A stretch of DNA of 64,000 nt from a bacterium (GCA_028716385.1 JAQUPX010000001.1:282775-346774); one strand, 5' to 3'. Shown: positions 5,735 through 62,037, counted from the stretch's first letter. Made by a program: numbers and translations. The notes: generated from the letters alone by a model not told the origin.

Positions 5735-5820
5735 AAAATAGAATATCACAAAACAAAAAGTCGCTGAGCTCGCAGAGGATAAAAAAGTCGGACCGGGATA
5801 GTTGGATTTTTCGATGCAAA

Positions 5821-6510: not shown

Positions 6511-6512
6511 AA

Positions 6513-34407: not shown

Positions 34408-34414
34408 AACTTTA

Positions 34415-36040: not shown

Positions 36041-36048
36041 TTTATTTC

Positions 36049-37638: not shown

Positions 37639-37723
37639 TTTTCCTCCCCTCCTCCGATATTTTTTCTGTTATTTGTTTTATTTGTCTTATTCGTCCTATA
37701 TGACTTATATGTCTTATCTTTTC

Positions 37724-38797: not shown

Positions 38798-38804
38798 AAT
38801 TTTC

Positions 38805-40268: not shown

Positions 40269-40275
40269 CTTTTCC

Positions 40276-41622: not shown

Positions 41623-41871
41623 CTTTCCTCCTACTTTATTTCATCCTCAAGTATCTTTATACTTAATATTCTCAAAACCTTTCTTTGTCAATCTTAAATG
41701 TCAACTTTTTTAATTCCTTCGGTGAATCAAAGAATTCTGTGCCAACTTTGCGATAATCCATCAAACAGAGGAAAGAGAATTTTCCAATTTTTGTCTAAAT
41801 CTCGGGGCAAAAGTTAGGTCGTGTAAATTAGGAACCGCAGACATCCATACGATCATAAACTTAAAACATTC

Positions 41872-43299: not shown

Positions 43300-43369
43300 T
43301 AAAATTATTAAAGCGTATGATTAAAAGGGGGAAATCCAGTGCCAAATCTGTGCCCATCCGTGCTTTGTA

Positions 43370-44197
43370 TCATTTCATTAATATTAGTTTCTTTGTCTCT
43401 TTTATATTCCCCGCACTTAACTTCACAAAATATACCCCGCTCTTTTTTATGTTCGGCGTAAATGTATAATCCCCTTTACTTAATGTGCCACTGTAAATAA
43501 CCTCTTTCGTTCTCCCGCATAAATCGTAAATTTTCAATTCCGCATTTATACTCTTTGGCGCGCTCAAATAAATCTTTCCTTTTATAATTTTCAAGTCAAC
43601 AGCTTGAAGCGAGGGCTTCAAGCTACCCTGTTCTTCTATCCCTACGACAGGAGTGCCTGTTATGGAAACATCGTCAATCCAAAAAGCGACAGAGTCAGTA
43701 TAACTTGAAGTACCGGGAGATTGTATATCTGCTCCGAATATAATTCCGGTTATAGTATCCTTATCAGTATAAATTCCTTGCCATTGTGTCCATACCAAGT
43801 TTTCCCCCATACCATACAGATAATCCCCCCTAGTCCATACTGTATCATTCTTTTTATTTATAAGGAGAATGATAGATATTTTGTTAACAGACATCGCAGG
43901 CGCATCGCACGAATATTGATACTGAATTTTGCATGTGCAAGATATTACGGGTTTTATCGTTTGGGACATAGTTATGCTACTGAACTGGCATGAAGGTTTA
44001 TATCCATAAGCATATACCTCGCAACTTGCCGGAGAGGAGTAATATTTTGTATAGCAAGGAGTTGCCCTCCCGCCACCGTGTGCTATTGTGGGCGACCAGC
44101 TCGTTACTCCCGAATTAAATCCACCGTTAGTTATCATCTCACTCGCAAACATAGATAACGGCACAATTAACATCAAACCTATCAATACCTTTTTCAT
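43370..44197 (-). CDS. secreted hypothetical protein with T9SS C-terminal tail
   Basis: 275 aa; signal-like N-terminus; C-terminal sorting tail. Confidence 0.5.
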   Translation of the reverse strand: MKKVLIGLMLIVPLSMFASEMITNGGFNSGVTSWSPTIAHGGGRATPCYTKYYSSPASCEVYAYGYKPSCQFSSITMSQTIKPVISCTCKIQYQYSCDAPAMSVNKISIILLINKKNDTVWTRGDYLYGMGENLVWTQWQGIYTDKDTITGIIFGADIQSPGTSSYTDSVAFWIDDVSITGTPVVGIEEQGSLKPSLQAVDLKIIKGKIYLSAPKSINAELKIYDLCGRTKEVIYSGTLSKGDYTFTPNIKKSGVYFVKLSAGNIKETKKLILMK

Positions 44198-44208
44198 AGT
44201 TTTTTCTC

Positions 44209-45618
44209 CTACTTAATCAAGATTAATTTCTTTGTTTCTGTAAAATTATTAGTTTTTAATTGCACAAAATACACCCCATTCTTTTTTATCTTCGGCGTAA
44301 ACGTATAATCCCCTTTACTCAATATGCCATTATAGACAGTGCTTTGAAGTCTTCCACATAAATCATAAATCGTTATTAGTGTATTAGTATAATAGTTATT
44401 AGGAACAGAAAGACAAATCTTATCTTTTATAGTTTTTATATTTACTGACCACTCACCACTCACCACTGGCAACTGTTCTTCTTCTACGCCGACTTCTTTC
44501 CCCAATTTAATCAGATAGACTCCACAACCTGCCCCACTTCCTGCAATAATAAATCCGCTGTCAGAAGTTTGTTGAATTGATCTTCCCGCATCATAGCCGG
44601 TTCCGCCGATAGTTTTTGTCCAGAGAGTGTCGCCCGAACTATTTATCTTGATTAGATAGATATCTCCACCACCTGCCCCAAAAGAGGTTGTCATTCCTGA
44701 AATAATAAATCCGCTATCAGAAGTTTGTTGAAATGCCCAGCCCTCATCATACTCAGTTCCACCATAAGTTTTTGTCCAAATCGTATTACCTGAAGAATTT
44801 GTACGTATAAAATAAATATCTCCCTTACCTGCTCCTAAAAGTTCTGAATAACCTAAAACAATAAAGCCACCCATTCCGCCCGAAACTGATTGAACGGAAG
44901 TGCCGCCATCATATCCGCTTACACCGAAAGTTTTAGTCCAGATAACATCTCCCGAACTAGTTGTCCTTATTAGATAAACATCTCCCTCGCCCGGTCCATA
45001 ATATGCTTTTGTCATTCCTGAAATGATAAACCCTCCGTCTTGAGTCTGTTGAACGGAAAAACCTACATCATCGTAAATTCCGCCATAAGTTTTTGTCCAG
45101 AGAGTATTACCCGAAGAATCTGTCTTGATAAAATAAAAATTCTGATAATCCGGTGCGCCTGTCCCGAAAGAGTATGTCCCGCCTACGATAACAAATCCTC
45201 CGTCTTGAGTCTGTTGAACGCATTCTCCATAATCAGAGTCAGTCCCGCCGTAACTTCTTGACCATAAGGTATCCCCTAAAGAATCCGTTTTAATCAAACA
45301 AACATCTTTCCCGGAATACGTATTGCCTGCAATAATAAACCCGCAGTCAGAAGTCTGTTGGACCGAAAAGCCCCCATTGTTGCTAATTTTTCCGAAAGTT
45401 TTTGTCCACAGGGTATCCCCCGAAGAGTTTGTTCTGATGAGATAAATATTATTAGAATCTGTACGGCTTACAATAACAAATCCCCCGTCTTGAGTCTGTT
45501 TAACAAAATAGGCAGATGCACTTTTCCCGCCATAAGTCCTTGTCCATAAAGTATCCGGTGCAGATGCGAACAAGTTTGTTCCCGTTATGATAATTAATAT
45601 AATCAAATATCTTTTCAT
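44209..45618 (-). CDS. beta-propeller-type repeat (SBBP-like) protein with T9SS C-terminal tail
   Basis: 469 aa; eight repeats of GDTLWTKTYGGxxxDxGxSVQQTxDGGFIIxGxT...DxYLIKT; C-terminal sorting tail; same family as the fragment at 1-552. Confidence 0.6.
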   Translation of the reverse strand: MKRYLIILIIITGTNLFASAPDTLWTRTYGGKSASAYFVKQTQDGGFVIVSRTDSNNIYLIRTNSSGDTLWTKTFGKISNNGGFSVQQTSDCGFIIAGNTYSGKDVCLIKTDSLGDTLWSRSYGGTDSDYGECVQQTQDGGFVIVGGTYSFGTGAPDYQNFYFIKTDSSGNTLWTKTYGGIYDDVGFSVQQTQDGGFIISGMTKAYYGPGEGDVYLIRTTSSGDVIWTKTFGVSGYDGGTSVQSVSGGMGGFIVLGYSELLGAGKGDIYFIRTNSSGNTIWTKTYGGTEYDEGWAFQQTSDSGFIISGMTTSFGAGGGDIYLIKINSSGDTLWTKTIGGTGYDAGRSIQQTSDSGFIIAGSGAGCGVYLIKLGKEVGVEEEQLPVVSGEWSVNIKTIKDKICLSVPNNYYTNTLITIYDLCGRLQSTVYNGILSKGDYTFTPKIKKNGVYFVQLKTNNFTETKKLILIK

Positions 45619-45724
45619 ATTGCCCCCCTATTTCAGTGGGTAGTTGGGAGCACGTGCTCCCAACGCTACCCTGTGTTTTCATTCTGTCATTGTCATCCCG
45701 CACTTGATGCGGGATCCATTGTTT

Positions 45725-46900
45725 TCATTTTATTAGTACCATTTTCTTCGTTTCTTTAAAATTATTAGTTGTCAGCCTCACAAAATACACCCCGCTCTTT
45801 TTTATATTGGGCGTAAATGTATAATCCCCTTTGCTTAGTAGACCTTGATAAACAGTGCTTTGAAGTCTTCCACATAAATCATAAATTTTCAATTCCGTAT
45901 TTATACTCTTTGGCGCGCTCAAATAAATCTTGCCCTTTATTATCTGTAAATCCGCATTCCCCAATCCGAAATCCAAAATCAAAGGTTCTTCCACTCCCGA
46001 TTTTGAGTTAATGAATTTTAATATCCACTTTCCCGTAGTGTCGGGAACATTATATAAATATAACTCGGAAGAATCCGGTGTCAAACTTAGCCCTGACACA
46101 AACCCTATTCCACTAAATTCCGGCATCGCTTCAGGTGTAGAAAAAGTGTCTCCTATCGAACCTCTTTTTGCGTAGTAAATAATACCGGCTCTAAAATAAA
46201 TTTCCAGTTCATTATTTGTCAGGAAACAAGAAAAGTTATTAGTGCCGGGAAAATTAATTTTAAGGGACTCTTTAGCTCCGAATAAAGAATCTCTATTGCT
46301 TCTGGAAGCCATATATAAATAAACCCCCTGAGAATCCTCCTGCGCAAAATAAAGATGTAATCCGTTTGGTGAAATCCATGGGTAAGCGTCTGCCGTATCG
46401 GTAATATTTATCTCGCTTAGCGGGCGCAAACTATCAAAAGGGTCCGTTAAAGAATTCCTTACGGCAATCCATAAATCATTGTTGTCCCAGTTATTGTCCC
46501 AGCTTTTCGTAAATACCATTATTTTCCCGTCTTCCGTAATTGTGGGCTGGCTATTCGAGAAAGTATCCACATCATTAATATTCCCGGGCAATTTTGTCAG
46601 ACTTAATGAATCAAACTCTTCCTTAAGATTATTGCGGGACATAACATACAATCTATAGTTACCCGTGCTATCCGCAATGCTTGCATAATATTTCAGTCCG
46701 TCTTTTGAGAGCTGTCCCGGTCCGGGTATAAGATTCTGCGGAACTATAAGCGTATCCTTTAAAATAAAAGTTGTATCCGAGAAAAAAGCCGTTTTTGTAT
46801 TATTCTTTGTCTGGAGAATCCGCAGATTCCCGTCCTGTTTCCTTTCAACGTTTCCCTGCGTTAACGCAAGAACAAACCCCATCAAAATCGCATAAATCAT
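45725..46900 (-). CDS. secreted protein with T9SS C-terminal tail (start set at MIYAIL...)
   Basis: Track ORF reaches 46939, but ATG at 46900 has AAGGAGAG 5 nt upstream and begins a signal-like MIYAILMGFVLALTQG; C-terminal sorting tail. Confidence 0.55.
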   Translation of the reverse strand: MIYAILMGFVLALTQGNVERKQDGNLRILQTKNNTKTAFFSDTTFILKDTLIVPQNLIPGPGQLSKDGLKYYASIADSTGNYRLYVMSRNNLKEEFDSLSLTKLPGNINDVDTFSNSQPTITEDGKIMVFTKSWDNNWDNNDLWIAVRNSLTDPFDSLRPLSEINITDTADAYPWISPNGLHLYFAQEDSQGVYLYMASRSNRDSLFGAKESLKINFPGTNNFSCFLTNNELEIYFRAGIIYYAKRGSIGDTFSTPEAMPEFSGIGFVSGLSLTPDSSELYLYNVPDTTGKWILKFINSKSGVEEPLILDFGLGNADLQIIKGKIYLSAPKSINTELKIYDLCGRLQSTVYQGLLSKGDYTFTPNIKKSGVYFVRLTTNNFKETKKMVLIK

Positions 46901-46984
46901 ATTCTCTCCTTTATTAACCGGTATGTCGGTTAATAACACCCATCAACAACAAAAGTCAAACATTTTAATTTGTACGATGCAAGC

Positions 46985-48568
46985 TTATTTCAATACTATA
47001 AATCTTTTATTTATGCAGTGGCCGTTGGATTCCAACCTGACAAAATATATCCCGCCGGATAACCCTTTTGTATCTATACTAACCGTATGTTCGCCTGCGC
47101 ACTGCTCTCCGCTGAAAATAGTCCTGACCGCTCTCCCGCTGACATTATAAACTTTCAACGAAAAACTACTTTTAACGGGGAGTTCGTAACTTATATTCGC
47201 AAACTTTGAAACGAGATTCGGATTTACCTTTAATTCCCCAATCCGAAATCCAAAATCCGAATTCGACGATTCTTCTACCGCATTTAACGAAACTTTCGAG
47301 TAATAAACATCGGGATTCTCCATAGAAATCGACAAAGCGCTCCATACTATGTGGAGATATCCCGAGCCGTCAATTGCTGCCGAAGGATACATAGAAGCAA
47401 AACCTCCCGTGCTGATAATATTAGAGCTCCACGATAGTCCGCTGTTCTTGGAATACTTTACCCCGATTTTCGGATAAGGTTCCCCCATTAAACTATCGTA
47501 TTGATAAACACCATAAACAACTGCAACAAAATTATCCCGGACATTAATTTGAGGTATCCCCATCCCGTATCCCCCCACAGCCAAAGTCTCTACTGCCGGA
47601 ATCAGACAAACAGGAGTTCCCCAACTTGCTCCTCCATTGGAGGAATATCTTATGTAATACGAAAAAACGGAATCTTGTTTCTCGCACTGTAACCACCCTA
47701 TATAAACCGAATTTCCGCTTGACGCAACCGACGGCAAAATAGAAATATCCGTATCCGTCGTAAGCCTGACATCGGACGCCCAGACTTTTCCGCTGTCCGT
47801 TGAGCGTTTATAATATATCTCTCCGAGCGAATCGTTTTTTGAATCCTGCCATACCAGATGCACAAGATTACCGGAAGCTGATATTACCGGGAAAGGCTCA
47901 CATAAAAGACCCATTTGAGGAGGCGTATGTGTTACACCGGCAGTTGTCAACTTTTCAACGGGATTTGACCACCCGGAACCGCTGTTGAAAGAATGAGTAT
48001 AAACAAAATCATAAGTGCTGTCGGTTTCTAGTTTCGTCCAGATTGAATGAACGGTATTATTCCCGGACGTCGCCATAGATACGAGTCCCAGCCCTTGAAT
48101 CGAGTCCGATTTGTACAACACGGTATCTTTCCATATACTTCCGCCATCTACGGAACGAGTATAATAAATACAATAATTATCGCCGACATTTTCGTATTTG
48201 GAATAAAATATATGAACGGCATCGAGATTGTTAGTTGCTATCGTAGGCCAAAACCCAAGGGAGTCGGCAAGCCTTACGGTATCGCCGAACGTTGTTCCTC
48301 CATCGGTAGAGCGTTTATAATAAAGATGTGTTGCCGAACTTTTAGCCTTGTTTTTTGAGAATAATTCTATTGATTTGTAGCCTGTAGTGTCTACGTCATC
48401 TATCCACACGATATGAACACGGTTTCGCGAATCCAAAGCAACGGAATGCTGGGAAAAAAGAGAACTCGCCGAACATCCCGGGGTGTTGCTTATATTCGTT
48501 GCGCTCTTATACGAAACAGTCAATCCACCCAAAAGGATGCTTACTAAAAAATATTTAATGTATACCAT
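46985..48568 (-). CDS. BNR/Asp-box repeat (sialidase-fold) protein with T9SS C-terminal tail
   Basis: 527 aa; Asp-box motifs STDGGTTF, SVDGGSIW, STDSGKVW, SSNGGASW, SKNSGLSW; C-terminal sorting tail. Confidence 0.65.
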   Translation of the reverse strand: MVYIKYFLVSILLGGLTVSYKSATNISNTPGCSASSLFSQHSVALDSRNRVHIVWIDDVDTTGYKSIELFSKNKAKSSATHLYYKRSTDGGTTFGDTVRLADSLGFWPTIATNNLDAVHIFYSKYENVGDNYCIYYTRSVDGGSIWKDTVLYKSDSIQGLGLVSMATSGNNTVHSIWTKLETDSTYDFVYTHSFNSGSGWSNPVEKLTTAGVTHTPPQMGLLCEPFPVISASGNLVHLVWQDSKNDSLGEIYYKRSTDSGKVWASDVRLTTDTDISILPSVASSGNSVYIGWLQCEKQDSVFSYYIRYSSNGGASWGTPVCLIPAVETLAVGGYGMGIPQINVRDNFVAVVYGVYQYDSLMGEPYPKIGVKYSKNSGLSWSSNIISTGGFASMYPSAAIDGSGYLHIVWSALSISMENPDVYYSKVSLNAVEESSNSDFGFRIGELKVNPNLVSKFANISYELPVKSSFSLKVYNVSGRAVRTIFSGEQCAGEHTVSIDTKGLSGGIYFVRLESNGHCINKRFIVLK

Positions 48569-48770
48569 TATTTCTCCTTGTCTTGTTTTTAAACTAGACC
48601 CTTACTCCATATCTTTGTTTGTTGGGGTTGTCAAGTGGAAAAAGAAGGGGAAAAGGAATAAATATTAATTTAGCAGTAACTTATAGCCTAGCCCAATGAA
48701 AGAGACTGCAGCAGAACCGGGTAAACCGCCTTTGGCAGAAAGCGGAGCGCCCCAACCTACCCTCTATTTT

Positions 48771-50516
48771 TCATTTTAATGGATTTGCTCCCCGATTTAT
48801 CAAAGCGTTGTAATATTTGTTTCGTCGGCAAAGTTCCTCGTGTGTTCCCGTATCTATTAAACTGCCCTCTGCCAACACAATAATTTCGTCTGCCAACTTT
48901 GCAACTGACGGGTGATGTGTTATGAAAATAACGATTCTATCCTTGAAACTATTCAATACATTTTGGAGCACTTTTTTCTCTGTTTCGGAATCCAATGAAG
49001 CCGTCGCTTCATCAAGCACTACGATGTCCCCGCCTTTTAAAAACATCCGCGCAAGTATGATTCGCTGGATTTGCCCCTCGCTTAGACCGAGCCCGTTTTC
49101 CCCAAGATAAGTGTTGTATCCCGATTTTGTTTCTTTGATAAATTCGTTTGCCGTTGCCAGAATGGATGCCTGCTCTATCCCACTCTCATCCGTTGTGGTT
49201 TTCGCAATCCGTATATTATCGGAAATGCTTTCGGAAAAAATGAAATCCGAAATCGAAGCAATGCTTATTCGTGACCTGATATAATCAACAGGCAACTTTT
49301 CATACGCAATATTATTGATGAGATATTGTCCTTTCTGAGGAGAATAAAGACCGGCAAGTATATTCGCAATCGTGGACTTTCCCGCTCCCGAACTTCCTAC
49401 TAAGGCATACACCCGCCCGGCAACGCACTCAAACGTAATCTCTTGTAAAGCAACCGTCTTATCGGGATAAGCATAACTTATATTGTCTAACTTAATTTGT
49501 GTTATCCTGTTCGGTAAAACTGTATTTTGCTGTAAGTCGTTGGATTCTGATGGCATCAAAAGATATTCCTGTAAACGTTTTATCGTGCCTTCAATAATAG
49601 GTAATTTGCCTCCGACATTGATTACATTAGTAAACGACCCTATAAATCGACTAGAATATAAATCAAGCGCTATCCATTGTCCTATCGTCATATTCCCTTT
49701 CAATACTAAATATCCACCGAACAAAAAAACCAATAATGTTGGCAGATACTCTAAAAACAATTCCTGGAATAAAGAGGGGTAATACTCGGCAACGGAGAGC
49801 TTAACGCTTTTGTTAATGTAATCCGTATATCGTTTTTTATATGTTTCCATACGGAATTTATGCGCGAGCCATAATTTAAGCGAGCGAAGTCCGGCAAGCG
49901 TTTCATAGCGAAAAGTTTCTATATCGCACGCCTGGTCGCGAACCGCAAAAACCTGCTCACGCATCCGGTCATAGTATTTCCCTATGAAAAAATATAACGG
50001 AAAGAAGACAACCGCTATAATAACGGCAATCCAGATATTTACCGTTAGCGCATAAACGATTGCCCATATTGCGGTAACTATCTGGCTGACTAAACGGGAA
50101 CTAATATGTTCATAAAAATTCATTACGCTTTCGGTATCTTTTTTAATTCTGTTCGCATGGAAACTGCCGGGTTTTTGCCCGAGCGATTGCACGGATACGT
50201 CCAGAATTTTACTCAGTATTTGATTGTCCAATGCGCAGGTTAAAGTAAGTTTCACCCGCCCCTGCAATAGCGTAATAATATATTGCGCAAGAAGAATCCC
50301 TCCAATATTCAGCGCCAGAACCCCGACAAACGGATACAACATAGCAAGGCTTTTACTCGGGACGATGGTATCGATAAAATATTTCGCATAAAGGGGCAGC
50401 GCCATATAAAGGCAATCCAGTATTATCTGTAAGATTACTATTAACAGCGTTTTGTTTCCCTGTGTAGAGATAAGACTTTTATAAAACGCCGTTATTTTAC
50501 GAATGTCGTTTATCAT
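48771..50516 (-). CDS. ABC exporter, fused permease-ATPase
   Basis: 581 aa; hydrophobic N-terminal half; Walker A GSSGAGKST; signature LSEGQIQRIILARMF; Walker B VVLDEATASLD. Confidence 0.8.
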   Translation of the reverse strand: MINDIRKITAFYKSLISTQGNKTLLIVILQIILDCLYMALPLYAKYFIDTIVPSKSLAMLYPFVGVLALNIGGILLAQYIITLLQGRVKLTLTCALDNQILSKILDVSVQSLGQKPGSFHANRIKKDTESVMNFYEHISSRLVSQIVTAIWAIVYALTVNIWIAVIIAVVFFPLYFFIGKYYDRMREQVFAVRDQACDIETFRYETLAGLRSLKLWLAHKFRMETYKKRYTDYINKSVKLSVAEYYPSLFQELFLEYLPTLLVFLFGGYLVLKGNMTIGQWIALDLYSSRFIGSFTNVINVGGKLPIIEGTIKRLQEYLLMPSESNDLQQNTVLPNRITQIKLDNISYAYPDKTVALQEITFECVAGRVYALVGSSGAGKSTIANILAGLYSPQKGQYLINNIAYEKLPVDYIRSRISIASISDFIFSESISDNIRIAKTTTDESGIEQASILATANEFIKETKSGYNTYLGENGLGLSEGQIQRIILARMFLKGGDIVVLDEATASLDSETEKKVLQNVLNSFKDRIVIFITHHPSVAKLADEIIVLAEGSLIDTGTHEELCRRNKYYNALINRGANPLK

Positions 50517-50553
50517 AATTACTTACGAAATATAACTATTTCAGGATTATTTT

Positions 50554-51993
50554 TTAGACAAGATATTTATTAAGTCTTGCAATAAAAGGTTCAAAAAAGA
50601 AATCCTTGATTCCCATACTTTGTAAAATTTCAAATAGAGTATGTTTTTTCCCGATTTTCCAAAGGTTTTTCAAAAAATTACCTGCCGCAGGATCATTAAA
50701 CCATTTCTCCCCATAATTTTTTTCAAGATAAGCAGAGAAAACGGGTTCAAATAACGCAGATTTTATATAGTTTATGATTTCAAACGCCGGATCAATGCTT
50801 CTCAAATACATAGCTTCCGGGAATTCTCCCTTACACGCATTAGACAAAATGTTTTTATAAAGCTCGCCCTTCCCTTTTAATTCTTCTGTTTTACGAAGCT
50901 CAATTTCGTAAATAAACTCGGCAGCCCATTGACGCAAAAGGGAAAGGTCGCGGAAAAACATTAATCGCAAAAACTTTTCAGGTTTCTTTATGCCTAATGC
51001 GGAAAACAACCAATGCGGATTATAAATAAGATGATCAAATGTTGCGGCAAATCCCTCTTCGACTGAATTATCCCCCAATCGCATATACTCAAAAGGAGTA
51101 TGTTCATCCATATGTATATTTGAAAGGGCATGCCCCAATTCATGCAGAAATGCTCCATAAGTTCTGTATGATATTCCCAATGGGGCAATAACTAAAAAGA
51201 TTTTAGAAGGAATTTCAATCGGCGCACAAAAACCGTTCCCTGCTTTTTTCTCTCTCGTGTCTGTGTCAAACTTAATATTATTTTCTCCACTATAACCTAT
51301 ATCCATATCTTCAAGTAATTTTTTAATAATATTAACCATTGCGTCTTCAGGAAACAAAGAACTGAAAGTCTCAGGTTTTCCGTACTCTATCTTAATTGCT
51401 TTATCATAAATATCTTGAGTTTTTTTCAAAAAGTCTTGCATTGACTCCGAAAGTTTGTATAAATCTATACCACTAATAGTCTGAAACATAGAAATGTAAT
51501 TACTAAATCCCAGCTCTTCGGGTATTTTCATTGTTCTTTTATGAATATCCTCAAGAGACGGATTAATTTTATCCATAATTTTTATTTTCTCTTCCGTCCA
51601 CCAGGTTTTTAAGTATGAATTTTTATTGCTCATCATTTCTATTTGAGCAGCATAATAGGAAACCTTTCTTCCATCAGGAAAAATAACTGTAGCATCGGAT
51701 TCTATGTTGTCGGCATTATCATTAAGTTCTTTTACTTGCATTTGTTCATAATTATTAATAAGAAATTCAAGAATATACCGGATGCTTTTTTTCTCTTCTT
51801 CTCCCGCTTTATTCATAAACTCTATTACGGATTCTATTGTTTCTTTTGAACTCAAAACACTATATTTTTCGTATATTGCAGAAAAATTACTTTCGTCTTT
51901 CTGCCCGGACCATACGAGATATCTTTCCTGATATATTTCTCTAAAAAACTCTTCCCCTTTTTCTCTGATTGTTTGCACACTGATTTTTAACAT
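50554..51993 (-). CDS. zinc metallopeptidase (HExxH gluzincin-type; family not resolved)
   Basis: 479 aa; FLHELGHAL followed by a downstream Glu (EEGFAATF); no signal peptide seen. Confidence 0.55.
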   Translation of the reverse strand: MLKISVQTIREKGEEFFREIYQERYLVWSGQKDESNFSAIYEKYSVLSSKETIESVIEFMNKAGEEEKKSIRYILEFLINNYEQMQVKELNDNADNIESDATVIFPDGRKVSYYAAQIEMMSNKNSYLKTWWTEEKIKIMDKINPSLEDIHKRTMKIPEELGFSNYISMFQTISGIDLYKLSESMQDFLKKTQDIYDKAIKIEYGKPETFSSLFPEDAMVNIIKKLLEDMDIGYSGENNIKFDTDTREKKAGNGFCAPIEIPSKIFLVIAPLGISYRTYGAFLHELGHALSNIHMDEHTPFEYMRLGDNSVEEGFAATFDHLIYNPHWLFSALGIKKPEKFLRLMFFRDLSLLRQWAAEFIYEIELRKTEELKGKGELYKNILSNACKGEFPEAMYLRSIDPAFEIINYIKSALFEPVFSAYLEKNYGEKWFNDPAAGNFLKNLWKIGKKHTLFEILQSMGIKDFFFEPFIARLNKYLV

Positions 51994-52067
51994 TACTTCC
52001 CTCCCGGGATTTTCAATTAATTGTTTTTACAAAAATTGCAACTACAAGTGCCCCAGCCTACCCAACT

Positions 52068-52634
52068 TTATTTACAAAGCGCATCCTTCATTTCCTTTTC
52101 TATGTCAAAAACATTTTCTGACGTTAAAAGAACATTCGCCGTCTTTCCCTCTTTTAATTCTACGAGAATATACCAAACAAAAGTAATACCCTCTGTTGTC
52201 GTTCTCATTTTTGTAACTATCCATTTTTTTGCGCCCGGTTTCGGAACACCGTAAGACGTTTCCCCGAATCCGTTCATCCCGCCTTTCTTTGTCTCCCCTA
52301 TGAGTAAATCAATATCCGTTCCCTTAACCTTTGCGAAACATCCATCCCACAAAGCTCCCCATTTTAAAAGAGTGTCTTCCCTGCACTTTCCTTCCGATAG
52401 CCATTTTCTATACTTAATTTTGTTTTCTTTGAGTTTGTATCTCAATGCCGGTAGCGGGTCTTTATCAAATATTGCAAATTGCACAACATTAGGTTCTAAA
52501 GAGGTAGCGCCTAAACTTACAAATATCCCATATGCTTTTTGCAAGCCTGTTTCTAAGTATTCTATTTCAGTACTCGCTTTAACTTCTACCGTTATCCACC
52601 CCGTTATTACTAAAATCCATATCCACTTTTTCAT
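52068..52634 (-). CDS. secreted hypothetical protein
   Basis: 188 aa; signal-like MKKWIWILVITGWITVEVKAS. Confidence 0.45.
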   Translation of the reverse strand: MKKWIWILVITGWITVEVKASTEIEYLETGLQKAYGIFVSLGATSLEPNVVQFAIFDKDPLPALRYKLKENKIKYRKWLSEGKCREDTLLKWGALWDGCFAKVKGTDIDLLIGETKKGGMNGFGETSYGVPKPGAKKWIVTKMRTTTEGITFVWYILVELKEGKTANVLLTSENVFDIEKEMKDALCK

Positions 52635-52718
52635 ATTTTCTCCCTTCCAAAATATTCATAACTACTTAATCAAATATAACTAATTTTTTCAATTGTCAAA
52701 GGATATGATACCAACTTG

Positions 52719-53192
52719 TTAGTCCATCTTTGCGCCTTTGCGACTTAGCGTGAGATATTCTGTTATTTTTTCCATCTCTTTTTGAAACTCGGCAATTGGT
52801 TCTCTATAAGACGCTTTTAACAGAATCTTTCCTTCCCGGTTTACAAAAATTTTCGCAGGCGTCTCCTCGAACCCAAGTTTTTTCTTTGCCGATAAGTCCT
52901 TATCGAACAAAACAAGAAAATTGATTTTGGCATTCCTGACCCAGTCCACTAATTCTCTTTCGCTCACGTGATACGCAATCCCGATTACCCGGATATTTTC
53001 GTCTTTGGCAATCTCCGGCCAGACCCACCGTTCTGCAATGCAAGGCAAACTATCAAGTAACGAGAAATAAATAAACAACGTATGCTTTTTTTCTTTCAGT
53101 AGTTCCGAAACGTTTCTTTCTTTTCCCGTTAAATCGGGCAGCGAAAAAAACGGAATGCAAGATTCTTTGTTTTTCATTATATATTCATACAA
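52719..53192 (-). CDS. thioredoxin-fold (redoxin/TlpA-like) protein
   Basis: 157 aa; weak resemblance to redoxin-family proteins (ETPAKIFVNREGKIL) with a single Cys in LDSLPCIAERW; no CxxC; start overlaps upstream gene by 16 nt. Confidence 0.4.
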   Translation of the reverse strand: MYEYIMKNKESCIPFFSLPDLTGKERNVSELLKEKKHTLFIYFSLLDSLPCIAERWVWPEIAKDENIRVIGIAYHVSERELVDWVRNAKINFLVLFDKDLSAKKKLGFEETPAKIFVNREGKILLKASYREPIAEFQKEMEKITEYLTLSRKGAKMD

Positions 53193-54100
53193 TACTTTAC
53201 AATAAAATACTTCTGCGAATCTTCGGTTTTTTCTTCCCTGAGAAAATACACGAACCCGTTTTCATCCGCGCAAAGTAATTTGTCATTTGTCTTAAAATTG
53301 CCAACGAATTTTCCGCCTATAGTCCAAACGTCTATTACGTATTTTTCTTTAATTTCTTCTACCAAATCATTCATATTCAATTGTAAAAAAATCAGTTTGT
53401 CTTTTGGAGAGGTGCATATTTTTATTACTTGTGTCCAGGAACGTGCCCATTTTTCTATGTTGCCTTCCATACAGTTCCCGGGATATTTCAGTTTAGGGGA
53501 AACAAAATATTCAGGCTCTTCCCCCAAAGTTCTTATTAACTTACCCTCTAAACTATATTCCCAAATCTTATAATCACCTACTTGAACGACAAACAAACTA
53601 TCCTTATATAAATCAAAAAATACTCCCAGTATTTCAAAATCTATGGAAGTTGGGCTTTTAGGGCAGAATGAATATAGAAATTCGCCCCTTAAAGAAAGAG
53701 TATGTATGTAAGTTTGTGTAGCAGGATTTGATGCTCCCGCGAATATAAGTTCTTTTGCAACCCGTATTGTAAATGGTTGTGTATGGTATTCCGTAAAGAT
53801 AAAAGAATTGGTGAGTTCCCCGTCAGGACTGAAAGCGCTTAACCTTCTTATGGCGTGGTCGGTTATATAAAAATTTCCTTTTTCGTCTTTTGTTATTGCG
53901 TTCGGCAGTTGAAACTCTCCCGGCTTCAATCCTTCTTTTCCTATCGTTTTGATTAGTTTCCCGTCTTTGTTGAATATCAAAAATCGTTTGCCGTGCATAT
54001 CCGTTATCCCAAATCTTCCTTGCGAATCCACTACCATACCCGTTAAAGATAACGTTTGCGTTTCTAAAGGAATAATCGTTTTCAAGTTAAAAATATCCAT
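53177..54100 (-). CDS. NHL-type / six-bladed beta-propeller repeat protein
   Basis: 307 aa; repeated GxxxLxxPxGITxDxxGxxYITD-like units (GRFGITDMHGKRFLIFN, FQLPNAITKDEKGNFYITDH). Confidence 0.5.
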   Translation of the reverse strand: MDIFNLKTIIPLETQTLSLTGMVVDSQGRFGITDMHGKRFLIFNKDGKLIKTIGKEGLKPGEFQLPNAITKDEKGNFYITDHAIRRLSAFSPDGELTNSFIFTEYHTQPFTIRVAKELIFAGASNPATQTYIHTLSLRGEFLYSFCPKSPTSIDFEILGVFFDLYKDSLFVVQVGDYKIWEYSLEGKLIRTLGEEPEYFVSPKLKYPGNCMEGNIEKWARSWTQVIKICTSPKDKLIFLQLNMNDLVEEIKEKYVIDVWTIGGKFVGNFKTNDKLLCADENGFVYFLREEKTEDSQKYFIVKYCMNI

Positions 54101-54307
54101 AACAATATAGTTTTCTCCCTATTGGGTAGATAGGGCTTTAATGCCCTATCTTATTCTATGATATTCTTAATCAAATATAACTATTTTTTTCAATTGTCAA
54201 AGAATATGGTACCAACTTCTAATCCGTTTTTGTAAATTACCCCGTCCTTTAGGGCGGGGGCGTGAACCTAAAACAAAATATTTTCTTGGGCTTTAGCCCG
54301 AAATTAC

Positions 54308-55042
54308 CTACCTTTTCTGACAAATAAATATCGCCCGCGTTGTTTCCGCATCTACCTTTTTATCTTTTTTGTCTTCCACATCCCATACCTCTTTTATCGT
54401 AAACCCGCTTTTTTCAATCAAAGAACTTATCTCCGCAACTTCATAGCGTCTCTGGATGTGTGTTTCTTTATACGCTTTTCCCTTGAAGTTTAGAATAAGG
54501 TCCAGCGTCTTTATTTTTGTCGTCTCGTTGTAAGATGGAGATATTGTCACTCCAAAAGTATCAAACTTCGCATTAAATTTCACCGAGAATTTTTTCCCCT
54601 GGTATGGAGTAGTTATGTCAAATATGAAGTGTCCGTTTTCGTTTAGGCGGGCATACACATTATTGAAAACCTTTGTCATATCTTTTCTCAGGAGAATATA
54701 ATTTATGGCGTCAAAGTTACAGGTTGCCAAATCGAAGTAATCACGGAGTTGAATTTCTCTCATATCCCGGACAAAAAAATTACATAAGAGGCGTTGTTTT
54801 TTCGTTTTTATTTTTGCTAAACGTATCATTTCGGGAGACGAATCTATCCCCGTTCCCGTCCATCCGTTCTTTACCATTTCCAGAAGAAACGTTCCTGTCC
54901 CGCACCCGATATCCAGAAGTTTTTTGTTGTTTCCCGTTGTTGAACCGAAATAATCGTTGAGTAGTTTTATGGTTACTTGGTGTAACTCTTTGTATAAAAC
55001 ATCATACACCTGCGAGAGATATTTGTAAGGATTATTTAACAT
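54308..55042 (-). CDS. class I SAM-dependent methyltransferase
   Basis: 244 aa; motif I LLDIGCGTGTF; architecture parallels the methyltransferase at 28273-29046. Confidence 0.7.
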   Translation of the reverse strand: MLNNPYKYLSQVYDVLYKELHQVTIKLLNDYFGSTTGNNKKLLDIGCGTGTFLLEMVKNGWTGTGIDSSPEMIRLAKIKTKKQRLLCNFFVRDMREIQLRDYFDLATCNFDAINYILLRKDMTKVFNNVYARLNENGHFIFDITTPYQGKKFSVKFNAKFDTFGVTISPSYNETTKIKTLDLILNFKGKAYKETHIQRRYEVAEISSLIEKSGFTIKEVWDVEDKKDKKVDAETTRAIFICQKR

Positions 55043-55288
55043 TGTTTTTTATTCTTGTGTTTTATCATAAAACATATTCTTTGTCAAAGATATTCAGGAC
55101 GGAAATTTAAAAAACGTCTTCCCGCCGGTTTGCCTATTAGTAGGTAAAATTGTAGGGGCGACTCGCCGAGTCGCCAGTTTACAATGCCTGAGCCGGGTAT
55201 GATTTTCTAAAACAAAAGCCCTCCCCGAATAACGGGGAGGGCTTCTGCGTTATTATCTGTGTCTATCCTTGTCCATCTGTGTTTTGTA

Positions 55289-58200
55289 TCATTTCATCAA
55301 TATGAGTTTCTTTGTCTCTTTGTATTCACCAGCTTTAAACTTCGCAAAGTATATACCCGTCGGATAGTTCCTTGATTCAAGAGTTTCCTTGTAACAACCC
55401 GGTACTTTCTCTCCATCTACCAATGTCTTTATGCATCGTCCTGTAAGGTCGTAAAGTTTTAAAGAAACTTTGCTAGTTTTCGGTAGTGAATATTGAATCG
55501 TTGTTCTGTCCCTAAATGGATTAGGATAATTTTGATAGAGCTTGAATACAAGCGGTTTAGACATAGTTCCTTGCGATCCGCCGCTTCCAAGTTCAGCTCT
55601 GCAAATCTTTCCTTCGCCCCCATCTGTCGCATTATCAGGACCTATTCCTTGAGTTACCAAAACATTTCCCGTGAAAGTCTCTACATTTCTTATAAGTGCG
55701 ATTCTCCCGCCTGCCGATCCACCACCGTCCGCTTGTGTATTATTTGCTCCGTCATTTCCTTTTGCTTCTATGTTCCCTTCACCTTTTAATGAATCACAGC
55801 TTATAAAAATCGAGCCACCGCTTCCGGCACCGCCTGCATATCCACTTGCATATTTATATCCAGCTTCTCCATTTACTGAAACTACTCCGTCAATTGTTAT
55901 CACATTTGCTGAAAGTTTTAATCTTCCTCCACCGGAACCTCCCGGGGCTACTGTATAGTTATTTCCAGCGCCTCCGCCGGAACCAAGAGATGTAGGATTA
56001 AGAGAATCTGCTTCACCATAAGCAACTCCACCGGATATTCCGCTTTCTCCGTTTCCCCCTGTGTTTCCGTAACCTGCTCCGCCGGCACCCGCTCCATTCA
56101 ATCCGTTTGTGCCTTTCCCGGTTCCGTTTGATGTTAAATAGCCTTTTTTATCTGCACTTATCACTGCTCCCGAACCGACAGTTATCTCATTTGCTATAAT
56201 AGAAGCATTACCTAATACGGAATCTCCGGAATCAAGCTGGAATTTTACATTGCTGAAACTTGCTCCGTTAACAAACGAAAGCCTGTCATGTGAGCCTATT
56301 GTCGTATTTACCGGAGAAACAAGCAATTCTACGTTTCCGTTAGATTGAGCTACTTTTATTATTCCGCTCTGTCCGTCTTGTGCCTTATCCGGATAAATAG
56401 AGCCTGCCCCAACGCCACCGCTTGCCAATAACTTTCCACTAAAAGATGAATTCCTGTAATCAATTTGAAGCCTTCCCGCGCTTCCGCCTCCACCCTGTGC
56501 TGTGCTTCTATATGCGCCATTTCCTCCGTTTGTTTCTGCAATTCCGCTCCCTGCAATTGAATCGCAAGTTATCCAAATTGAACCTGCTCCACCGCCACCG
56601 CCGGCATAAGACGAGCCGCCTGCTTCTCCATCCGTTCCATTAGATTCTATTTTCCCTGAAAGCGTTAATGTCGCTGTTGAGAGTTTAATTAAACCGCCTC
56701 CTGCTCCACCCCAAGCCGAATAAGAGCTTCCGTTTCCGCCACCACAGCCAAGGTAAGCCATTGGAGAAAGAGTATCAGGATAAGCGGCTCCGCCTGATAT
56801 TTCTGTTTCTCCTAAACCGCCTTGCCCACAGCACGCTCCACCGCCTGCGCCTGCACCATTTGTGCCATTTGTGCCTTTGCCCGGTCCACTGGCTTTCGGA
56901 TTTCCCTTGCCTGTAGAGCTTAAAGTTCCTAATAGTTGCATTGTTTGAGCTTCCACGTCTATGATACCTGTAGTAGAATCAGTGCCATTAAATGCAACGC
57001 TATTCATCGTAGCGCCTGAATTTATCTTAAATAAGTTTATGTTATAATGTCTACCTGAAACGAGTCTTGTGCTGTCCGTTGTCCATACCCAATCAGTCCC
57101 GCCGTGATTTGTTCCACCAAGTCCTACGCTTAACTGGAAGTGACGCACTCCACCTGCACCTGAATTATAAACATAGTTTGGATTAGTGCGTAAGTTCTGT
57201 GTAGCCCCATTCCCAAGATCAAGCAAATATATGCCGTATCCCGAAGGCACATCGGACGGTAAAATGTTAAGTGTTATATTTTCGTTTGATTTATCCGTAT
57301 TGACTTCAAAGTTCCATACCATTGTGGAATCCGTAAGGTCAACCGTTTCTCTTACATCCTGACAGAACTTATCTCCTAAAGGATGATTCCATTCGGAATG
57401 AGGAAAATAGAGGTGTACATAATTGGAAGGGGGAGTAGAATATTTTGGAATGTCATATCCTTCGTCACAACTGTCAGAAGCTTCTCCAAGCACTCCTGCG
57501 TAATTTGAAATATCTTCGGCAAAGTTGGAAGTTGCTTTGACCTGGAGTTTCCAGTCGAGAGGTAGAATAGTTTTTATCGGCATAAAAGTACTATATCCGG
57601 AAACGGTACCTGCTATGGTAGCGGAATCGCTGTTCTCCCAGTAATTATTCTGAGCGATAATCGTATCTCCGGATGTGTTTACAAAATTCCATAACCCATT
57701 AGCATAAATGTTATTATTCCCGGGATTGTATTCCGCATTGGAATAAGTAGCATTACCAAAATTAATTCCTGTTCCTGTATTGGTAAATACTCCAATTGAG
57801 TCATTCGCAACTATTGTATTTTCCCTGCCGAGTAGGGAGGAATTATATGCTTTTATACCTATTCTGTTATGATGAATCGTACTTTTCCATACTTCCCCGT
57901 AAGGTGAATTATCATAGAGAATTCCGGCTTGTTTACAATTCTCTATTTCAAAACCACGTATTGTAATGTACTGTTTATTGCTTACATTAAATCCATAATC
58001 CCTTGTATTGTCTCCGGTAATGACAACTCTTTCTCCTTCGGCAGCAAGATAAACAATTCTTCCGTCGTCGGGATCTCCTGCGTTTTGGGGAGTTACGGTC
58101 TCGTGATAAGTGCCACCCTTTACGATAACGGCTTCACCGGGTTGAAGAGTGTTAGCGGCTTTTTGAATAGTTGCCCATGGTGATGTTTCAGTCCCCGAAT

Positions 58201-61200
58201 TCCCATCGTTACCGCCATTGCAATTCACGTATTTTACGGATTTGTATGTGATATAAGGCACAGGCGTACTCCATGGACCAATATTGCCAGACCTATCTAT
58301 TGCACAAACAGCATAATAATACATCCAGTCGACTGGCGCCCACTCATACCATGTCCTTTGAATAGGAGAAAATGTTGTAGCTAGATTAAACGTGTTTGGC
58401 GAGTTACTCGCACTCACAAAATAGCCGCCTAAATACGGTTCATGGTTAGATTCGCCAGTACCTGCCTCTGTAAATGGAGTAGCATCCCACACACAACGAA
58501 TAATGCCACCTCTGCCTCTAAAGAAAGACACGCCTGTTACCTGAGGAGGCTTCAAGATATTATTAGCACCGGTTTTTACAAAACTACCAGAAGGAGGCGG
58601 TGTTTCACTAAAAGAAGCAGGCTCTGAAGGTATTTCATTGGTGCCAACAGCATTAACCGCTCTAATTGCATAATAATAATCCCGTCCAACCTCACCGGTA
58701 AAGTCCTGGTAATTCAGCCCCGATGTGTTGCCAATATATTCATAATCTCCGTTACTGCTTACTTCCGAACGATAAATATAATATTCTAGGGCATAGGGAA
58801 CGGAGTTCCAACTTATAAAACCACTTTTTTCACCATGGTCTATGGGATAAGGAATACGTGACATTACGCTAGGTGCAATAGGCCTATTAGTAATAGGCAT
58901 TAATCCCCATGGTCTGGATTTGGCAGGCCCAATCCAGAATTGTGCTCGGTTTTCCCCCCCGTCATCCCATATGACTTTTACTTTGTACCAATATGGAATG
59001 TTAAAACAAACAGTATTATCCGTATACCCATAGAAATTAAAGCCGTTGTTTGTCGCATTAATTACACTGCCCGGAACCTCTTCAAACGGACCTTCCTCGC
59101 ATATACTGCGATATACAATATACTTAGTTATCTTATCGCTTACACCGCTTGTCCATGTTTCTTCTCCGGTAATCCAGCCTATGCTGACACCTCCTTCATA
59201 CCCTTCTGCCCAAATATTACCTAACAATGGAGCATAATACCTGCCAAGGAGTGTACCTTCTTCAACGTCTATGTTTGGACGTCTTCCTCCGGAATATGCC
59301 ATCCAGCCTTTTTCGCCGTTACTGCATACACAATAAAGATCATTATTCTTTAAGAAATATTCATGTTCCCATTCTGCATATGTTTTGTAAATTGCATCTG
59401 ATGTGCCAACGTAGAATGTTCCTTTCTCGCCGCCGCCGATACTTCCATATTTAACATCAGTGAACCATGTAGGATACATTATCCTGCCGTCAAAATTAAT
59501 ATCTACTGAAGTCGAATTCCACGCAGAGCCGGAACTTGCCCCAACCCCTCCCGTGGAAATTCCCATTATTGCGTCGTCTATAGCTCCGCCTGATCCTGTA
59601 ATTCCAAAATTTGCATGTCTGACATCTGCCCAGTTGACAGGAGCGTTTACCCAATCACTTTGTCCCCAACCCCAGGGATACGGATTATGTCCCGGTTCAT
59701 CATTCCTGAATGTATTAAAAGATGCAGCAGTTGTCTCATTCCATTTGGTCCAAGTTATGCCTCCATTCTTTGTCTGCGCCACACACCCTCTGTTGTCCGT
59801 TGTTATCCAAACGTTATTGCCAAGCAGATTGTTTTTGTCTACCCATATACCTCTTACACAGTCGGAAAAATGCTCTGGTGTGTTTGGGACGGGTTTTGTA
59901 GTTATATTTGCCTTCCAAGTTTGTCCAAAATCTACTGATTTTAATACATATCCTCCGGATGCTCCTATGTATCCAACCTGGTCATTTGCAAAATCCACAC
60001 AATAGAAAGCAAGGTTATTATTGTCTGCACCCACTATATTATCCGAATATAAAAAAGATTGCCCTCCTCCTGTTTTTTCAAGTTTTGCTATAATTCCTCG
60101 CACACCTGTATAAGTTATATCCGTGCTTACTTTTACATTTGTCCCTACGACATATGCATAGTCCTGCGTCTCGCATACTCCATAAAAATCCCAATCATTT
60201 CCACAACCCGTTACCGGGGTCCACTTTGAATATGCATCTTTTTTTAAGATTAATCCTTTATCTCCAACTGCATAGTTTTCACTAACTGCTCTTATAATTT
60301 GGTTATTGGAACCAAAATCCGGCTGTTGATTAAACCAACCGGAAGTAAATAAAGGGTCAAGTTTGTCGTCAAAAATAAATAAGCCGAAAGTATTACTATA
60401 AGAACCAGGTAGTGCTATTTCTAAATCACCATCGTTATCTATATCCCCTATTGCAAGCTCATGAATAGTAGTACCTATGGATAAAGTGTACGCGGTTTCC
60501 CATAAAAAACTTCCGTCATAATTAAGGCAAAGAAGACAATATTTTAACGCAACAAACGGATCTAGAGAAATAATTATTTCTGGGTTAGGAGTTAGGTCAT
60601 TTATATTGGCAACCGTTATAGAAAGACTTGTTGTAGCGATGCCGGTTAAAGCATAAGTCCATTTGAAGCTACCATCATGATATAAAGAATAAATTTGAGT
60701 CCCAGACGCAAAAATTATTTCATCATAAGGATTGTTGTCTATATTCGCTATTGCCGGGGAAGAAATAATTCTGTTTCCTGTTGTATAACTCCATCTGCAA
60801 GAACCATTTGTGTTTAACAGATATACTTTGTTATCATCCGAACCGGCTACTATTTCCAAAGTGGAGTTATTATTATCTATATCCGTTATTGCCGGGGAAA
60901 ACCTTACTTTGTCTCCTGTTGCATAATTCCATCTGCAAGAACCATTTGCATTTAATACGTATACATTGTTGTCATAAGAGCCGACCACTATTTCTAAAGC
61001 AGTGTTATTATTATCTATATCCGCTATTGCCGGGGAAGATTCTACGTCGCCTCCTGTTGCATAAGTCCATCTAAAAGAACCATTTGCATTTAATACATAT
61101 ACATTGTTATCATCAGAGCCGAATACTATTTCTAAAGGACCGTTATTATTATCTATATCCGTTATTGCCGGGGAAGATTCTATTTTATCTCCTGTTGGAG

Positions 61201-61642: not shown

Positions 61643-61714
61643 CTTACCTCCTTTGCTCTAATAAAGAGCAAGCTACCTTACAAAAAATTATCTCCTCTTC
61701 TTCTTTATAAAAAA

Positions 61715-61794
61715 CAGTTTACTTTAAATATAGATTAATGCTTTTGCAATAAAAAATCCTAGTAAAATATTAGTATTTCTAGTAAAATCTTAAC
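61715..61794 (-). promoter_or_regulatory. promoter/operator module homologous to 27991-28073 (tandem CTAGTAAAAT repeats, TTGCAA, TTTAAAGT)
   Basis: Minus-strand reading: TTTTACTAGAAATACTAATATTTTACTAGGATTTTTTATTGCAAAAGCATTAATCTATATTTAAAGTAAACTG, about 75-150 nt upstream of the giant-protein ATG. Confidence 0.45.
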
Positions 61795-61822
61795 ATTTTT
61801 AGTTGGAGTTTCCGGCCTTGGC

Positions 61823-61915
61823 GGGATTACTCCAACTTATCAGTGTTTCTGATTAGTTAGAGTTTGCGATTCGCTCGTTACTCCAACTTATCAGTGTTTC
61901 TGATTAGTTAGAGTT
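61823..61915. repeat. tandem direct repeat of ~53-bp nested-palindrome element (TTACTCCAACTTATCAGTGTTTCTGATTAGTTAGAGTT x2)
   Basis: Two adjacent copies read directly; related single copies near 33185-33245 and 9100-9185; AGTTGG and CCAACT arms flank GC-rich inner hairpins. Confidence 0.5.
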
Positions 61916-62037
61916 TTATTCCTGAAATATTCGGTTTTTTAAAATTGTTTCGGGGGAAATGTAAGCTATTTAATTGAGGATAAACAAAAAGCCCTTCCCA
62001 TCACTGGGAAGGGCTTCAAATTAACTTTTTTTATTAA

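Follow-up and report, generated by a model that had tools for sequence, protein, structure and literature searches.

Here we describe six colinear genes on the minus strand at positions 48771-55042 of a 64,000-nt stretch of DNA (the window; GCA_028716385.1 JAQUPX010000001.1:282775-346774), taken from a 953-kb contig in the metagenome-assembled genome (MAG) of an uncultured, unclassified bacterium rich in cargo genes of the type IX secretion system (T9SS). Along the minus strand, the group encodes a class I methyltransferase (MT2), an NHL-type propeller, a thioredoxin-fold protein, a secreted 188-aa protein (sec188), a HExxH peptidase and an ABC half-transporter (ABC2); their coordinates, and those of the control elements between them, are collected in Table 1. 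An earlier description of the same DNA, made without database searches (the sequence-only reading), had proposed these six genes as a second peptide-handling group, parallel to a cluster at 20-29 kb of the window (a YcaO/radical-SAM (S-adenosylmethionine) cluster), that could be a processing and export arm or an independent peptide system. The genes themselves are borne out, as all six open reading frames (ORFs) appear in an ORF listing of the window and their domain assignments hold; the interpretation built on them is partly supported.

Table 1. Genes and control elements of the six-gene group, in the direction of transcription
Feature	Position	Strand	Basis or remarks
Intrinsic terminator	55208..55252	-	after the upstream 2117-aa T9SS gene; inverted repeat I3, U-run follows
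Promoter/operator-like box, near-palindrome ATATCTTTGACAAAGAATAT containing CTTTGACAA	55074..55093	-	upstream of MT2
MT2, class I SAM-dependent methyltransferase, 244 aa, cytoplasmic	54308..55042	-	Pfam
Promoter cassette, copy A (CATATTCTTTGACAATTGAAAAAAATAGTTATATTTGATTAAG)	54166..54218	-	before the propeller gene; TTGACA and a TAnnTTTG-type -7 box
Perfect 9-bp hairpin in the propeller 5' leader	54128..54151	-	inside an insert of ~65 nt (54101-54165)
NHL-type 6-bladed beta-propeller (DUF5128), 307 aa, no signal peptide	53177..54100	-	Pfam, PDB
TlpA/AhpC-like thioredoxin-fold protein, 152 aa from ATG	52719..53177 (52719-53192 from TTG)	-	Pfam, PDB
Promoter cassette, copy B	52649..52717 (53-nt repeat part 52665-52717)	-	before sec188; carries the propeller start-codon remnant ATGAATATTTTGG
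sec188, secreted, 188 aa; belongs to an uncharacterised family with a ~150-aa domain	52068..52634	-	signal-peptide-like N-terminus MKKWIWILVITGWITVEVKA, followed by S
M3-like closed-channel zinc oligopeptidase, 479 aa, cytoplasmic, HELGH	50554..51993	-	H284-E285-x-x-H288 and E313
Partial cassette (ATAGTTATATTTCGTAAGTAATT-ATG)	50517..50541	-	directly before ABC2; possible internal promoter or leader
ABC2, fused TMD-NBD (transmembrane domain, nucleotide-binding domain) ABC half-transporter, exporter type, 581 aa	48771..50516	-	ABC_membrane and ABC_tran

The most distinctive feature of the locus is a promoter-like cassette that recurs within it. The cassette is a 53-nt direct repeat (D1) whose copies A and B are identical at 50 of 53 positions; it has no other site in the 64 kb and no match in any of 100 shuffled sequences. 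On the gene strand it reads CATATyCTTTGACAATTGAAAAAAwTAGTTATATTTGATTAAG, containing TTGACA and TATATTTG, the latter fitting TAnnTTTG, the -7 consensus of Bacteroidota sigma-A promoters (PMC9723704). Indeed, TTGACA-N(15-19)-TAnnTTTG has two sites in the window, and these are copies A and B. The box CTTTGACAA occurs four times in the window against 0.73 expected, three of these copies being on the gene strand in the three intergenic regions of the group, and TAGTTATATTT likewise occurs four times (0.14 expected), with three of its occurrences preceding genes of this group. Furthermore, the part of the cassette from its -10 region to the start codon (TAGTTATATTTcGTAAGTAATT-ATG, repeat D5) directly precedes ABC2, in the same register to the ATG as in the two sister loci L007 and L009 described below. 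A scan for consensus sigma-70 promoters leaves the cassette unflagged, with its 15-nt spacer to TATATT, and returns no more sites than in shuffles; we read the cassette as a promoter because of its TTGACA and TAnnTTTG layout, its position and its conservation, not on the strength of that scan. The box upstream of MT2 is tied to the propeller cassette by an inverted-repeat pair (I20, 15 nt) that flanks MT2. We considered an invertible promoter for this pair and set the idea aside: the arm on the MT2 side is nearly palindromic in its own right, has a half-site in common with the cassette, and is better read as an operator.

Copy B occupies the 84-nt gap at 52635-52718 and points to the origin of the repeat. 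By blastn, 52707-52649 aligns with 9954-10011 of L007 and spans the ATG of the L007 propeller at 10001. As copy B retains ATGAATATTTTGG, it is a duplicate of a propeller promoter together with its first codons, and it would drive sec188 and probably the peptidase, the two being separated by a 74-nt gap with no significant RNA structure. RNA folds after MT2, sec188 and ABC2 are no better than those of shuffles, and the strong terminator before MT2 (RNA fold -33.9 kcal/mol, z = -7.5) separates the group from transcription of the preceding gene. With two full cassettes and one partial cassette inside it, the group is thus predicted to fall into three or four transcription units with promoter elements in common, with read-through possible, rather than the single co-transcribed unit of the sequence-only reading.

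Comparison with related loci divides the group into parts that are kept and parts that are replaced. Among the collections searched, related loci were found in two sister MAGs only, L007 (GCA_041649255.1) and L009 (GCA_028688815.1). The block formed by the propeller and thioredoxin-fold genes (54102-52763) is 90-91% identical in nucleotide sequence to both, and homology stops ~45 nt before the stop codon of the thioredoxin-fold gene in the window; the propeller orthologs are 86-88% identical in amino acid sequence, and those of the thioredoxin-fold protein 95% (L007) and 92% (L009). The cassette is kept as well, before the propeller in L007 and before an ABC-2 ATPase in L009, with an ATG ~12 nt past the -7 box in both. 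An ortholog of MT2 (72% amino acid identity) is found in one of the two sister MAGs only, L009, in the same neighbourhood; it lies upstream of the ABC-2 transporter, which directly precedes the pair. For sec188, the peptidase and ABC2 there is no counterpart at either locus. Instead, the pair is followed in both sisters by a HExxH lipoprotein with a sub-threshold match to Peptidase_MA_2 (588 aa, with HELTH, in L007), and neither BLASTP nor hhalign detects homology of the L007 lipoprotein to sec188 or to the peptidase of the window. In L007 the next gene is an exporter that is an 87% ortholog of ABC1, the exporter of the 20-29 kb cluster (24652-26370); the L009 contig ends within the lipoprotein, 1.1 kb past the pair. 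All three genomes therefore carry a non-orthologous HExxH protein after the pair (in the window, with sec188 first), followed by an ABC half-transporter in the window and in L007. This like-for-like replacement of an arm is the best argument for a functional association of the genes. It also bears on the proposed linkage of peptidase and exporter to the pair: the duplicated cassette and the HExxH protein and ABC exporter after the pair in L007 speak for such a linkage, and the absence of sister orthologs of the peptidase, sec188 and ABC2 speaks against it.

The surroundings of the pair in L007 lead back to the 20-29 kb cluster. Upstream lie two radical-SAM proteins whose best NCBIfam hits are peptide maturases, all below cutoff, the first also with a SPASM domain, along with a small MA_2 protein, two CBM9/DUF5916 proteins and another exporter; the pair itself lies between a CBM9/DUF5916 gene and the ABC1 ortholog. 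It follows that the pair is embedded there in the island that forms the YcaO/radical-SAM cluster of the window. Co-location of the pair with maturase-like genes is seen in L007, through the two radical-SAM proteins and the ABC1 ortholog, and the short L009 contig ends soon after the pair. From one genome to the next, the genes around ABC1, CBM9 and MT1 lie in a different, scrambled order. In L007 the ABC1 ortholog is directly followed by a 51-aa ORF at 15015-15170 (+), the N-terminal remnant of a methyltransferase of the type found at 28273 of the window (78% identity over 49 aa), which shows that genes of the island have decayed and been reshuffled.

The conserved pair combines two folds in an unusual form. 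The propeller matches Pfam PF17170 (DUF5128) at 43.2 bits against a gathering threshold of 22.9, is named '6-bladed beta-propeller' by NCBI, and aligns over residues ~20-100 with the NHL repeats of Thin, TRIM71 and Brat in a PDB sequence search. With the DUF5128 or 'BF3164-type' propellers of Bacteroidota it shares this above-threshold match; unlike them, it matches the profile over its first ~95 residues only and carries no lipoprotein signal. For NVEALA peptides beside such propellers in Bacteroides, the literature searched gave no confirmation, and nothing similar occurs here. The ~65-nt insert that separates copy A from the propeller start codon is not present in L007, where the ATG directly follows the cassette. 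The leader of which it is part folds at -27.1 kcal/mol (z = -5.0), and its hairpin is unique in the window; the insert may be a translational control element. A leader segment, CCCTAT...ATAGGGAG, could alternatively pair with the propeller ribosome-binding site.

For the thioredoxin-fold protein, the 16-nt overlap with the propeller gene given by the sequence-only reading would hold if the TTG at 53192 were the start; the ATG at 53177, which is used by the Logan contig gene call and by both sister orthologs, gives a 1-nt overlap within TAATG that couples the thioredoxin-fold gene translationally to the propeller gene. The match to AhpC/TSA is marginal (28.6 bits against a cutoff of 26), NCBIfam hits are all far below cutoff, and a PDB sequence search indicates a TlpA/ResA-like protein. 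In the alignment to 2l5o, S-L-P-C stands opposite C-P-G-C, so that the nucleophilic first cysteine of the CxxC is missing. The N-terminus, MKNKESCIPFFSLPDL, has no hydrophobic stretch and hence no export signal or anchor. TlpA, ResA and DsbE oxidoreductases act outside the cytoplasm with a CxxC, and the window protein has neither CxxC nor export signal. Among 5.8 billion proteins searched, its homologs are confined to the sister ortholog cluster.

MT2 is a well-supported class I methyltransferase, with Methyltransf_25, Methyltransf_23 and Methyltransf_11 all above cutoff (Methyltransf_25 at 65.9 bits against a gathering threshold of 27), the motif DIGCGTG, and the GxGxG and Rossmann features of SAM binding. 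It reaches no NCBIfam equivalog cutoff, and hits to methyltransferase models of ribosomally synthesised and post-translationally modified peptides (RiPPs) are far below theirs. The sequence-only reading gave MT2 the same architecture as the methyltransferase at 28273. The generic class I fold is indeed common to both; identity is 26% over a 103-aa Rossmann core, and the other protein has an N-terminal extension.

Of the exchangeable parts, sec188 fits its description as a small secreted protein by its signal-peptide-like N-terminus. It has no Pfam hit, and an exhaustive HMMER search returned 124 relatives in which the ~150-aa domain either stands alone with a signal peptide or, in 8 of 10 large hits, forms the C-terminal part of BlaR1/Peptidase_M56 membrane proteins. 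It is modelled (pLDDT 87) as a beta-sandwich into which a helical segment is inserted, for which fold searches returned only generic prealbumin-, CnaB- and transthyretin-like sandwich matches; we infer an extracytoplasmic binding or sensor role.

The intracellular HExxH peptidase is likewise upheld, by the motif HELGH and the lack of a signal peptide. Assignment to a family, which the sequence-only reading had left to profile searches, succeeded in part: the protein has no Pfam, NCBIfam, PDB sequence or PDB profile hit, and is M3-like by motif, relatives and fold. It has 141 homologs of ~500 aa, the best 36% identical, from Gemmatimonadota, Ignavibacteria, Nitrospinota, Bacteroidota and unclassified MAGs. 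Across 44 aligned sequences H284, E285 and H288 are invariant and E313 is kept in at least 90%, which places a Glu ligand 25 residues past the second His, as in family M3; 32 of the 44 relatives give weak, sub-threshold matches to PF01432 (Peptidase_M3; best E 4e-6), and the window protein itself gives none at E <= 1. Its AlphaFold2 model (pLDDT 93.5) has as top Foldseek matches the angiotensin-converting enzymes ACE and ACE2 (M2), organellar oligopeptidase and Pz-peptidase A (M3), at probability 1.0 and TMq 0.66-0.79. Taken together, motif, relatives and fold lead us to an M3-like closed-channel oligopeptidase, which shares HExxH plus Glu and a two-lobed helical closed channel with families M3 (oligopeptidase F, Pz-peptidase A, thimet oligopeptidase), M2 (ACE) and M32, and differs from M3 in being ~100 residues shorter and in lacking a Pfam M3 match. 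Closed-channel enzymes of the M2 and M3 types admit short peptides only, not folded proteins. The wider family (proteins P0002-P0120) consists of widespread ~500-aa M3-like gluzincins with no Pfam or NCBIfam model and no structure found by sequence, and may deserve a family definition of its own.

ABC2 is, as proposed, a fused exporter, without a C39 peptidase domain: the protein starts with its transmembrane domain, and alignments to models of peptidase-containing ABC transporters (PCATs) begin at model position ~150, with scores that fall short of the PCAT cutoffs (247 bits against 524 for TIGR01193 and 260 against 853 for TIGR03796). It is 28-29% identical to ABC1 and to both L007 exporters. 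Known accessories of RiPP and bacteriocin clusters include LanT or PCAT exporters, LanFEG and LanI immunity proteins, and McjD. The group resembles such sets in that genes for a secreted protein, a metalloprotease and an ABC exporter lie beside tailoring-type genes, and in that the equivalent arm of a sister genome adjoins radical-SAM/SPASM maturase-like genes; it is unlike them in lacking a C39 domain, a precursor and any membrane-fusion or outer-membrane partner, and nothing in it is homologous to LanI or LanFEG. As an observation on ABC2 itself, its signature motif is LSEGQ (residues ~470-480) where the canonical form, present in ABC1, is LSGGQ, and its Walker A, Walker B and H-loop look intact. 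A further element, GGGTAGGyTGGGGC, lies on the minus strand just past the stop codons of ABC2 (48749-48762) and sec188 (52050-52063); these are its two matches, against 0.32 expected, and 5 of 100 shuffles also reach two, so that its significance is uncertain.

From this gene content, these folds, the duplicated promoter and the pattern of conservation and replacement, we tentatively favour a reading in which the group is an accessory module of a variable RiPP island, made of a conserved core and an exchangeable protease and exporter arm under a shared cassette. The core would be the translationally coupled, cytoplasmic propeller and SLPC thioredoxin-fold protein, usually with MT2, and would act in the cytoplasm on a peptide or a peptide carrier. 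The arm would comprise an extracytoplasmic protein, a HExxH metalloprotease and an ABC half-transporter: in the window sec188, the M3-like oligopeptidase and ABC2, and in the sisters an arm starting with the unrelated HExxH lipoprotein, followed in L007 by the ABC1 ortholog. It is possible that short peptides, for example leader fragments set free during maturation or product taken up again, are trimmed or destroyed by the oligopeptidase, that ABC2 exports the product or protects the producer, and that sec188 binds something outside the cytoplasmic membrane. A part in peptide handling is plausible for the group; the peptide nature of the substrate and the biochemical roles are what we infer. 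The parts are ordinary in kind, and it is the duplicated cassette and the non-homologous replacement of the arm that set the locus apart.

Several observations weigh against this reading, and some of them favour what is its closest rival, a chance juxtaposition in a hypervariable island. Under that explanation, which we consider rather unlikely, a housekeeping oligopeptidase, a generic lipid or drug exporter, and an MT2 and a propeller pair with unrelated jobs, would have come together around a cassette that is simply a portable strong promoter, copied along as genes were shuffled. The island around the group is indeed hypervariable and crowded with T9SS cargo genes, so that neighbours can easily meet there by chance, and gene order around the cluster genes is scrambled between genomes. 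For a peptidase dedicated to a peptide system, the outcome that the sequence-only reading had named as telling against it is the one observed: all five homologs examined sit in housekeeping contexts with no conserved neighbours (for example beside serine hydroxymethyltransferase, EF-G/def/fmt, TrpRS, ProRS and an M20 peptidase). ABC2 is generic, below every NCBIfam cutoff and devoid of C39, and more distant homologs of the propeller (P0128 and P0138) occur in unrelated contexts. The six proteins include no class-defining RiPP maturase of the YcaO, radical-SAM/SPASM or LanM type in Pfam and NCBIfam scans, and there is no plausible precursor-sized ORF of at least 20 aa in the gaps at 54101-54307 and 55043-55288, nor any credible small ORF in any gap of the group, the two that the sequence-only reading had singled out included (52635-52718 and 54101-54307; lists down to 20 aa). 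Window pattern searches did not find the cassette in the 20-29 kb cluster, so that the sequence gives no sign of regulation shared with that cluster. Finally, the comparative support comes from two sister MAGs, and propeller scans of genome and metagenome collections re-found these same two. The proposed parallel to the 20-29 kb cluster thus stands insofar as the L007 pair lies beside the ABC1 ortholog and radical-SAM genes, and falls insofar as the group shares no cassette with that cluster and has neither maturase nor precursor.

The absence of sec188, the peptidase and ABC2 from the sister loci also speaks for chance, as does the lack of a precursor ORF. Against chance stands the recurrence of a non-homologous HExxH protein after the pair in both sisters, with an ABC exporter in L007, which is unlikely without a functional requirement, and the restriction of the cassette, within 64 kb, to this group. 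Furthermore, no relative of the peptidase exceeds 36% identity, so that in this lineage the protein does not qualify as a conserved housekeeping ortholog. The window copy is divergent, with a low G+C content of 0.33, is absent from the sister loci examined and has no close homolog in any collection, features more in keeping with an accessory than with a core gene. The main result is, for now, that the supposed second peptide system is a loosely linked, lineage-specific mosaic without a peptide of its own.

The pair itself raises a different explanation, that of a redox or protein-repair stress regulon in which an NHLRC2- or SOQ1-like pair recognises and repairs a client protein, with peptide turnover and efflux co-induced; we regard this as unlikely. 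NHLRC2 and SOQ1 also combine a TlpA-like thioredoxin fold with a six-bladed NHL propeller, here in translationally coupled genes co-conserved at 86-95% (the thioredoxin-fold protein at 92-95%, the propeller at 86-88%), and the Trx-like-NHL combination is conserved from bacteria to humans (PMC6107167). The lumenal domains of SOQ1 have disulfide-reductase and methionine-sulfoxide-reductase activity (bioRxiv 10.1101/2024.11.01.621559). In addition, the near-palindrome before MT2 and the cassettes have a half-site in common, as they should if one regulator controls them all. However, NHLRC2 and SOQ1 are single polypeptides with the thioredoxin domain first and a CC(I/V)NC motif (PMC6107167), whereas the domains here are reversed in order, split into two genes and left with S-L-P-C, a serine replacing the nucleophilic cysteine of CxxC. 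The pair also has no C-terminal domain and no recognisable signal peptide and is read as cytoplasmic; the likeness is one of architecture. Nor does the group contain a regulator or reductase partner gene, and a stress regulon leaves the radical-SAM adjacency in L007 unexplained.

An independent peptide system whose substrate is unconventional (sec188 itself) or encoded beyond the window is very doubtful: RiPP clusters usually have a methyltransferase, a protease and an exporter as accessories, and the second-best NCBIfam methyltransferase match of MT2 is the daptide RiPP methyltransferase (50 bits, far below the cutoff of 175), but the group has neither maturase nor precursor ORF, sec188 is not a precursor but a member of a family of folded ~150-aa domains that are widely found in fusion with BlaR1-type proteins, and the peptidase fold, as modelled, would by the general size rule exclude folded-protein substrates.

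Returning to the accessory-module reading, a more speculative extension, and an improbable one, is that the propeller, the SxxC thioredoxin-fold protein and MT2 form an unrecognised peptide-tailoring or chaperoning module, into which the portable cassette lets the lineage plug different protease-plus-exporter arms for rapid diversification of the RiPP island. Propellers that serve as peptide lyases or amidating enzymes, like peptidyl-alpha-hydroxyglycine lyase or Vgb, would be one precedent. If the pair and its arm do serve peptide-maturation genes, the locus would be a compact case of modular natural-product locus evolution, in which one cassette recruits non-homologous parts for the same job. 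It would also provide a first functional context for the Pfam-less M3-like oligopeptidase family found across several phyla, for the ~150-aa extracytoplasmic domain often fused to BlaR1-type sensors, and for a split, CxxC-less relative of the Trx-NHL proteins.

Beyond the group itself, the sister loci hold two elements that touch on its regulation and surroundings. At 165-6560 (+) of L009 lie three paralogous response regulators of the AraC helix-turn-helix type, 40-43% identical to one another; the last ends 44 nt before the MT2 ortholog and is a candidate regulator of the cassette regulon, with none beside the group in the window. At 9650-9790 (+) of L007, between the CBM9/DUF5916 gene and the propeller promoter, three AATAGTCTGAACGGCGGGC-like units and GC-rich hairpin-forming segments look like repeats of the repetitive extragenic palindromic (REP) type.

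Scans of the 64-kb window gave no Rfam or tRNA match, and PADLOC returned only generic methyltransferase-domain and ATPase-domain hits (mad2, mad3), which are not evidence of a defence system. Within the 20-29 kb cluster, a 47-aa ORF at 27823-27963 (-) (MFELTKIESTVTIEAGTTPGKLARRIGPSRLNEDETDMTDNCTMVLM), with the ribosome-binding site AAGGAGGTG and a CTTGACA box, immediately precedes the radical-SAM/SPASM gene and makes a good candidate for the precursor of that cluster; it has no paralog in the window, L007 or L009. A 56-nt direct repeat, 91% identical between its copies at 24232-24287 and 24579-24634, encloses the greater part of the 475 nt that separate ABC1 from the YcaO gene, with shorter related repeats between the two copies, and may be a REP-like element or one resembling a miniature inverted-repeat transposable element. 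Genes whose products carry T9SS C-terminal sorting domains form a long run (31698-48568 and 55289-63972 on the minus strand, 560-3651 on the plus strand); they are of FG-GAP, PQQ-like, RCC1, beta-helix and BNR types and include the 2117-aa giant. This run is interrupted by a Schlafen/AlbA_2-HATPase_c_4 gene at 41872-43299, and the window as a whole looks like an island of secreted-protein and natural-product genes.

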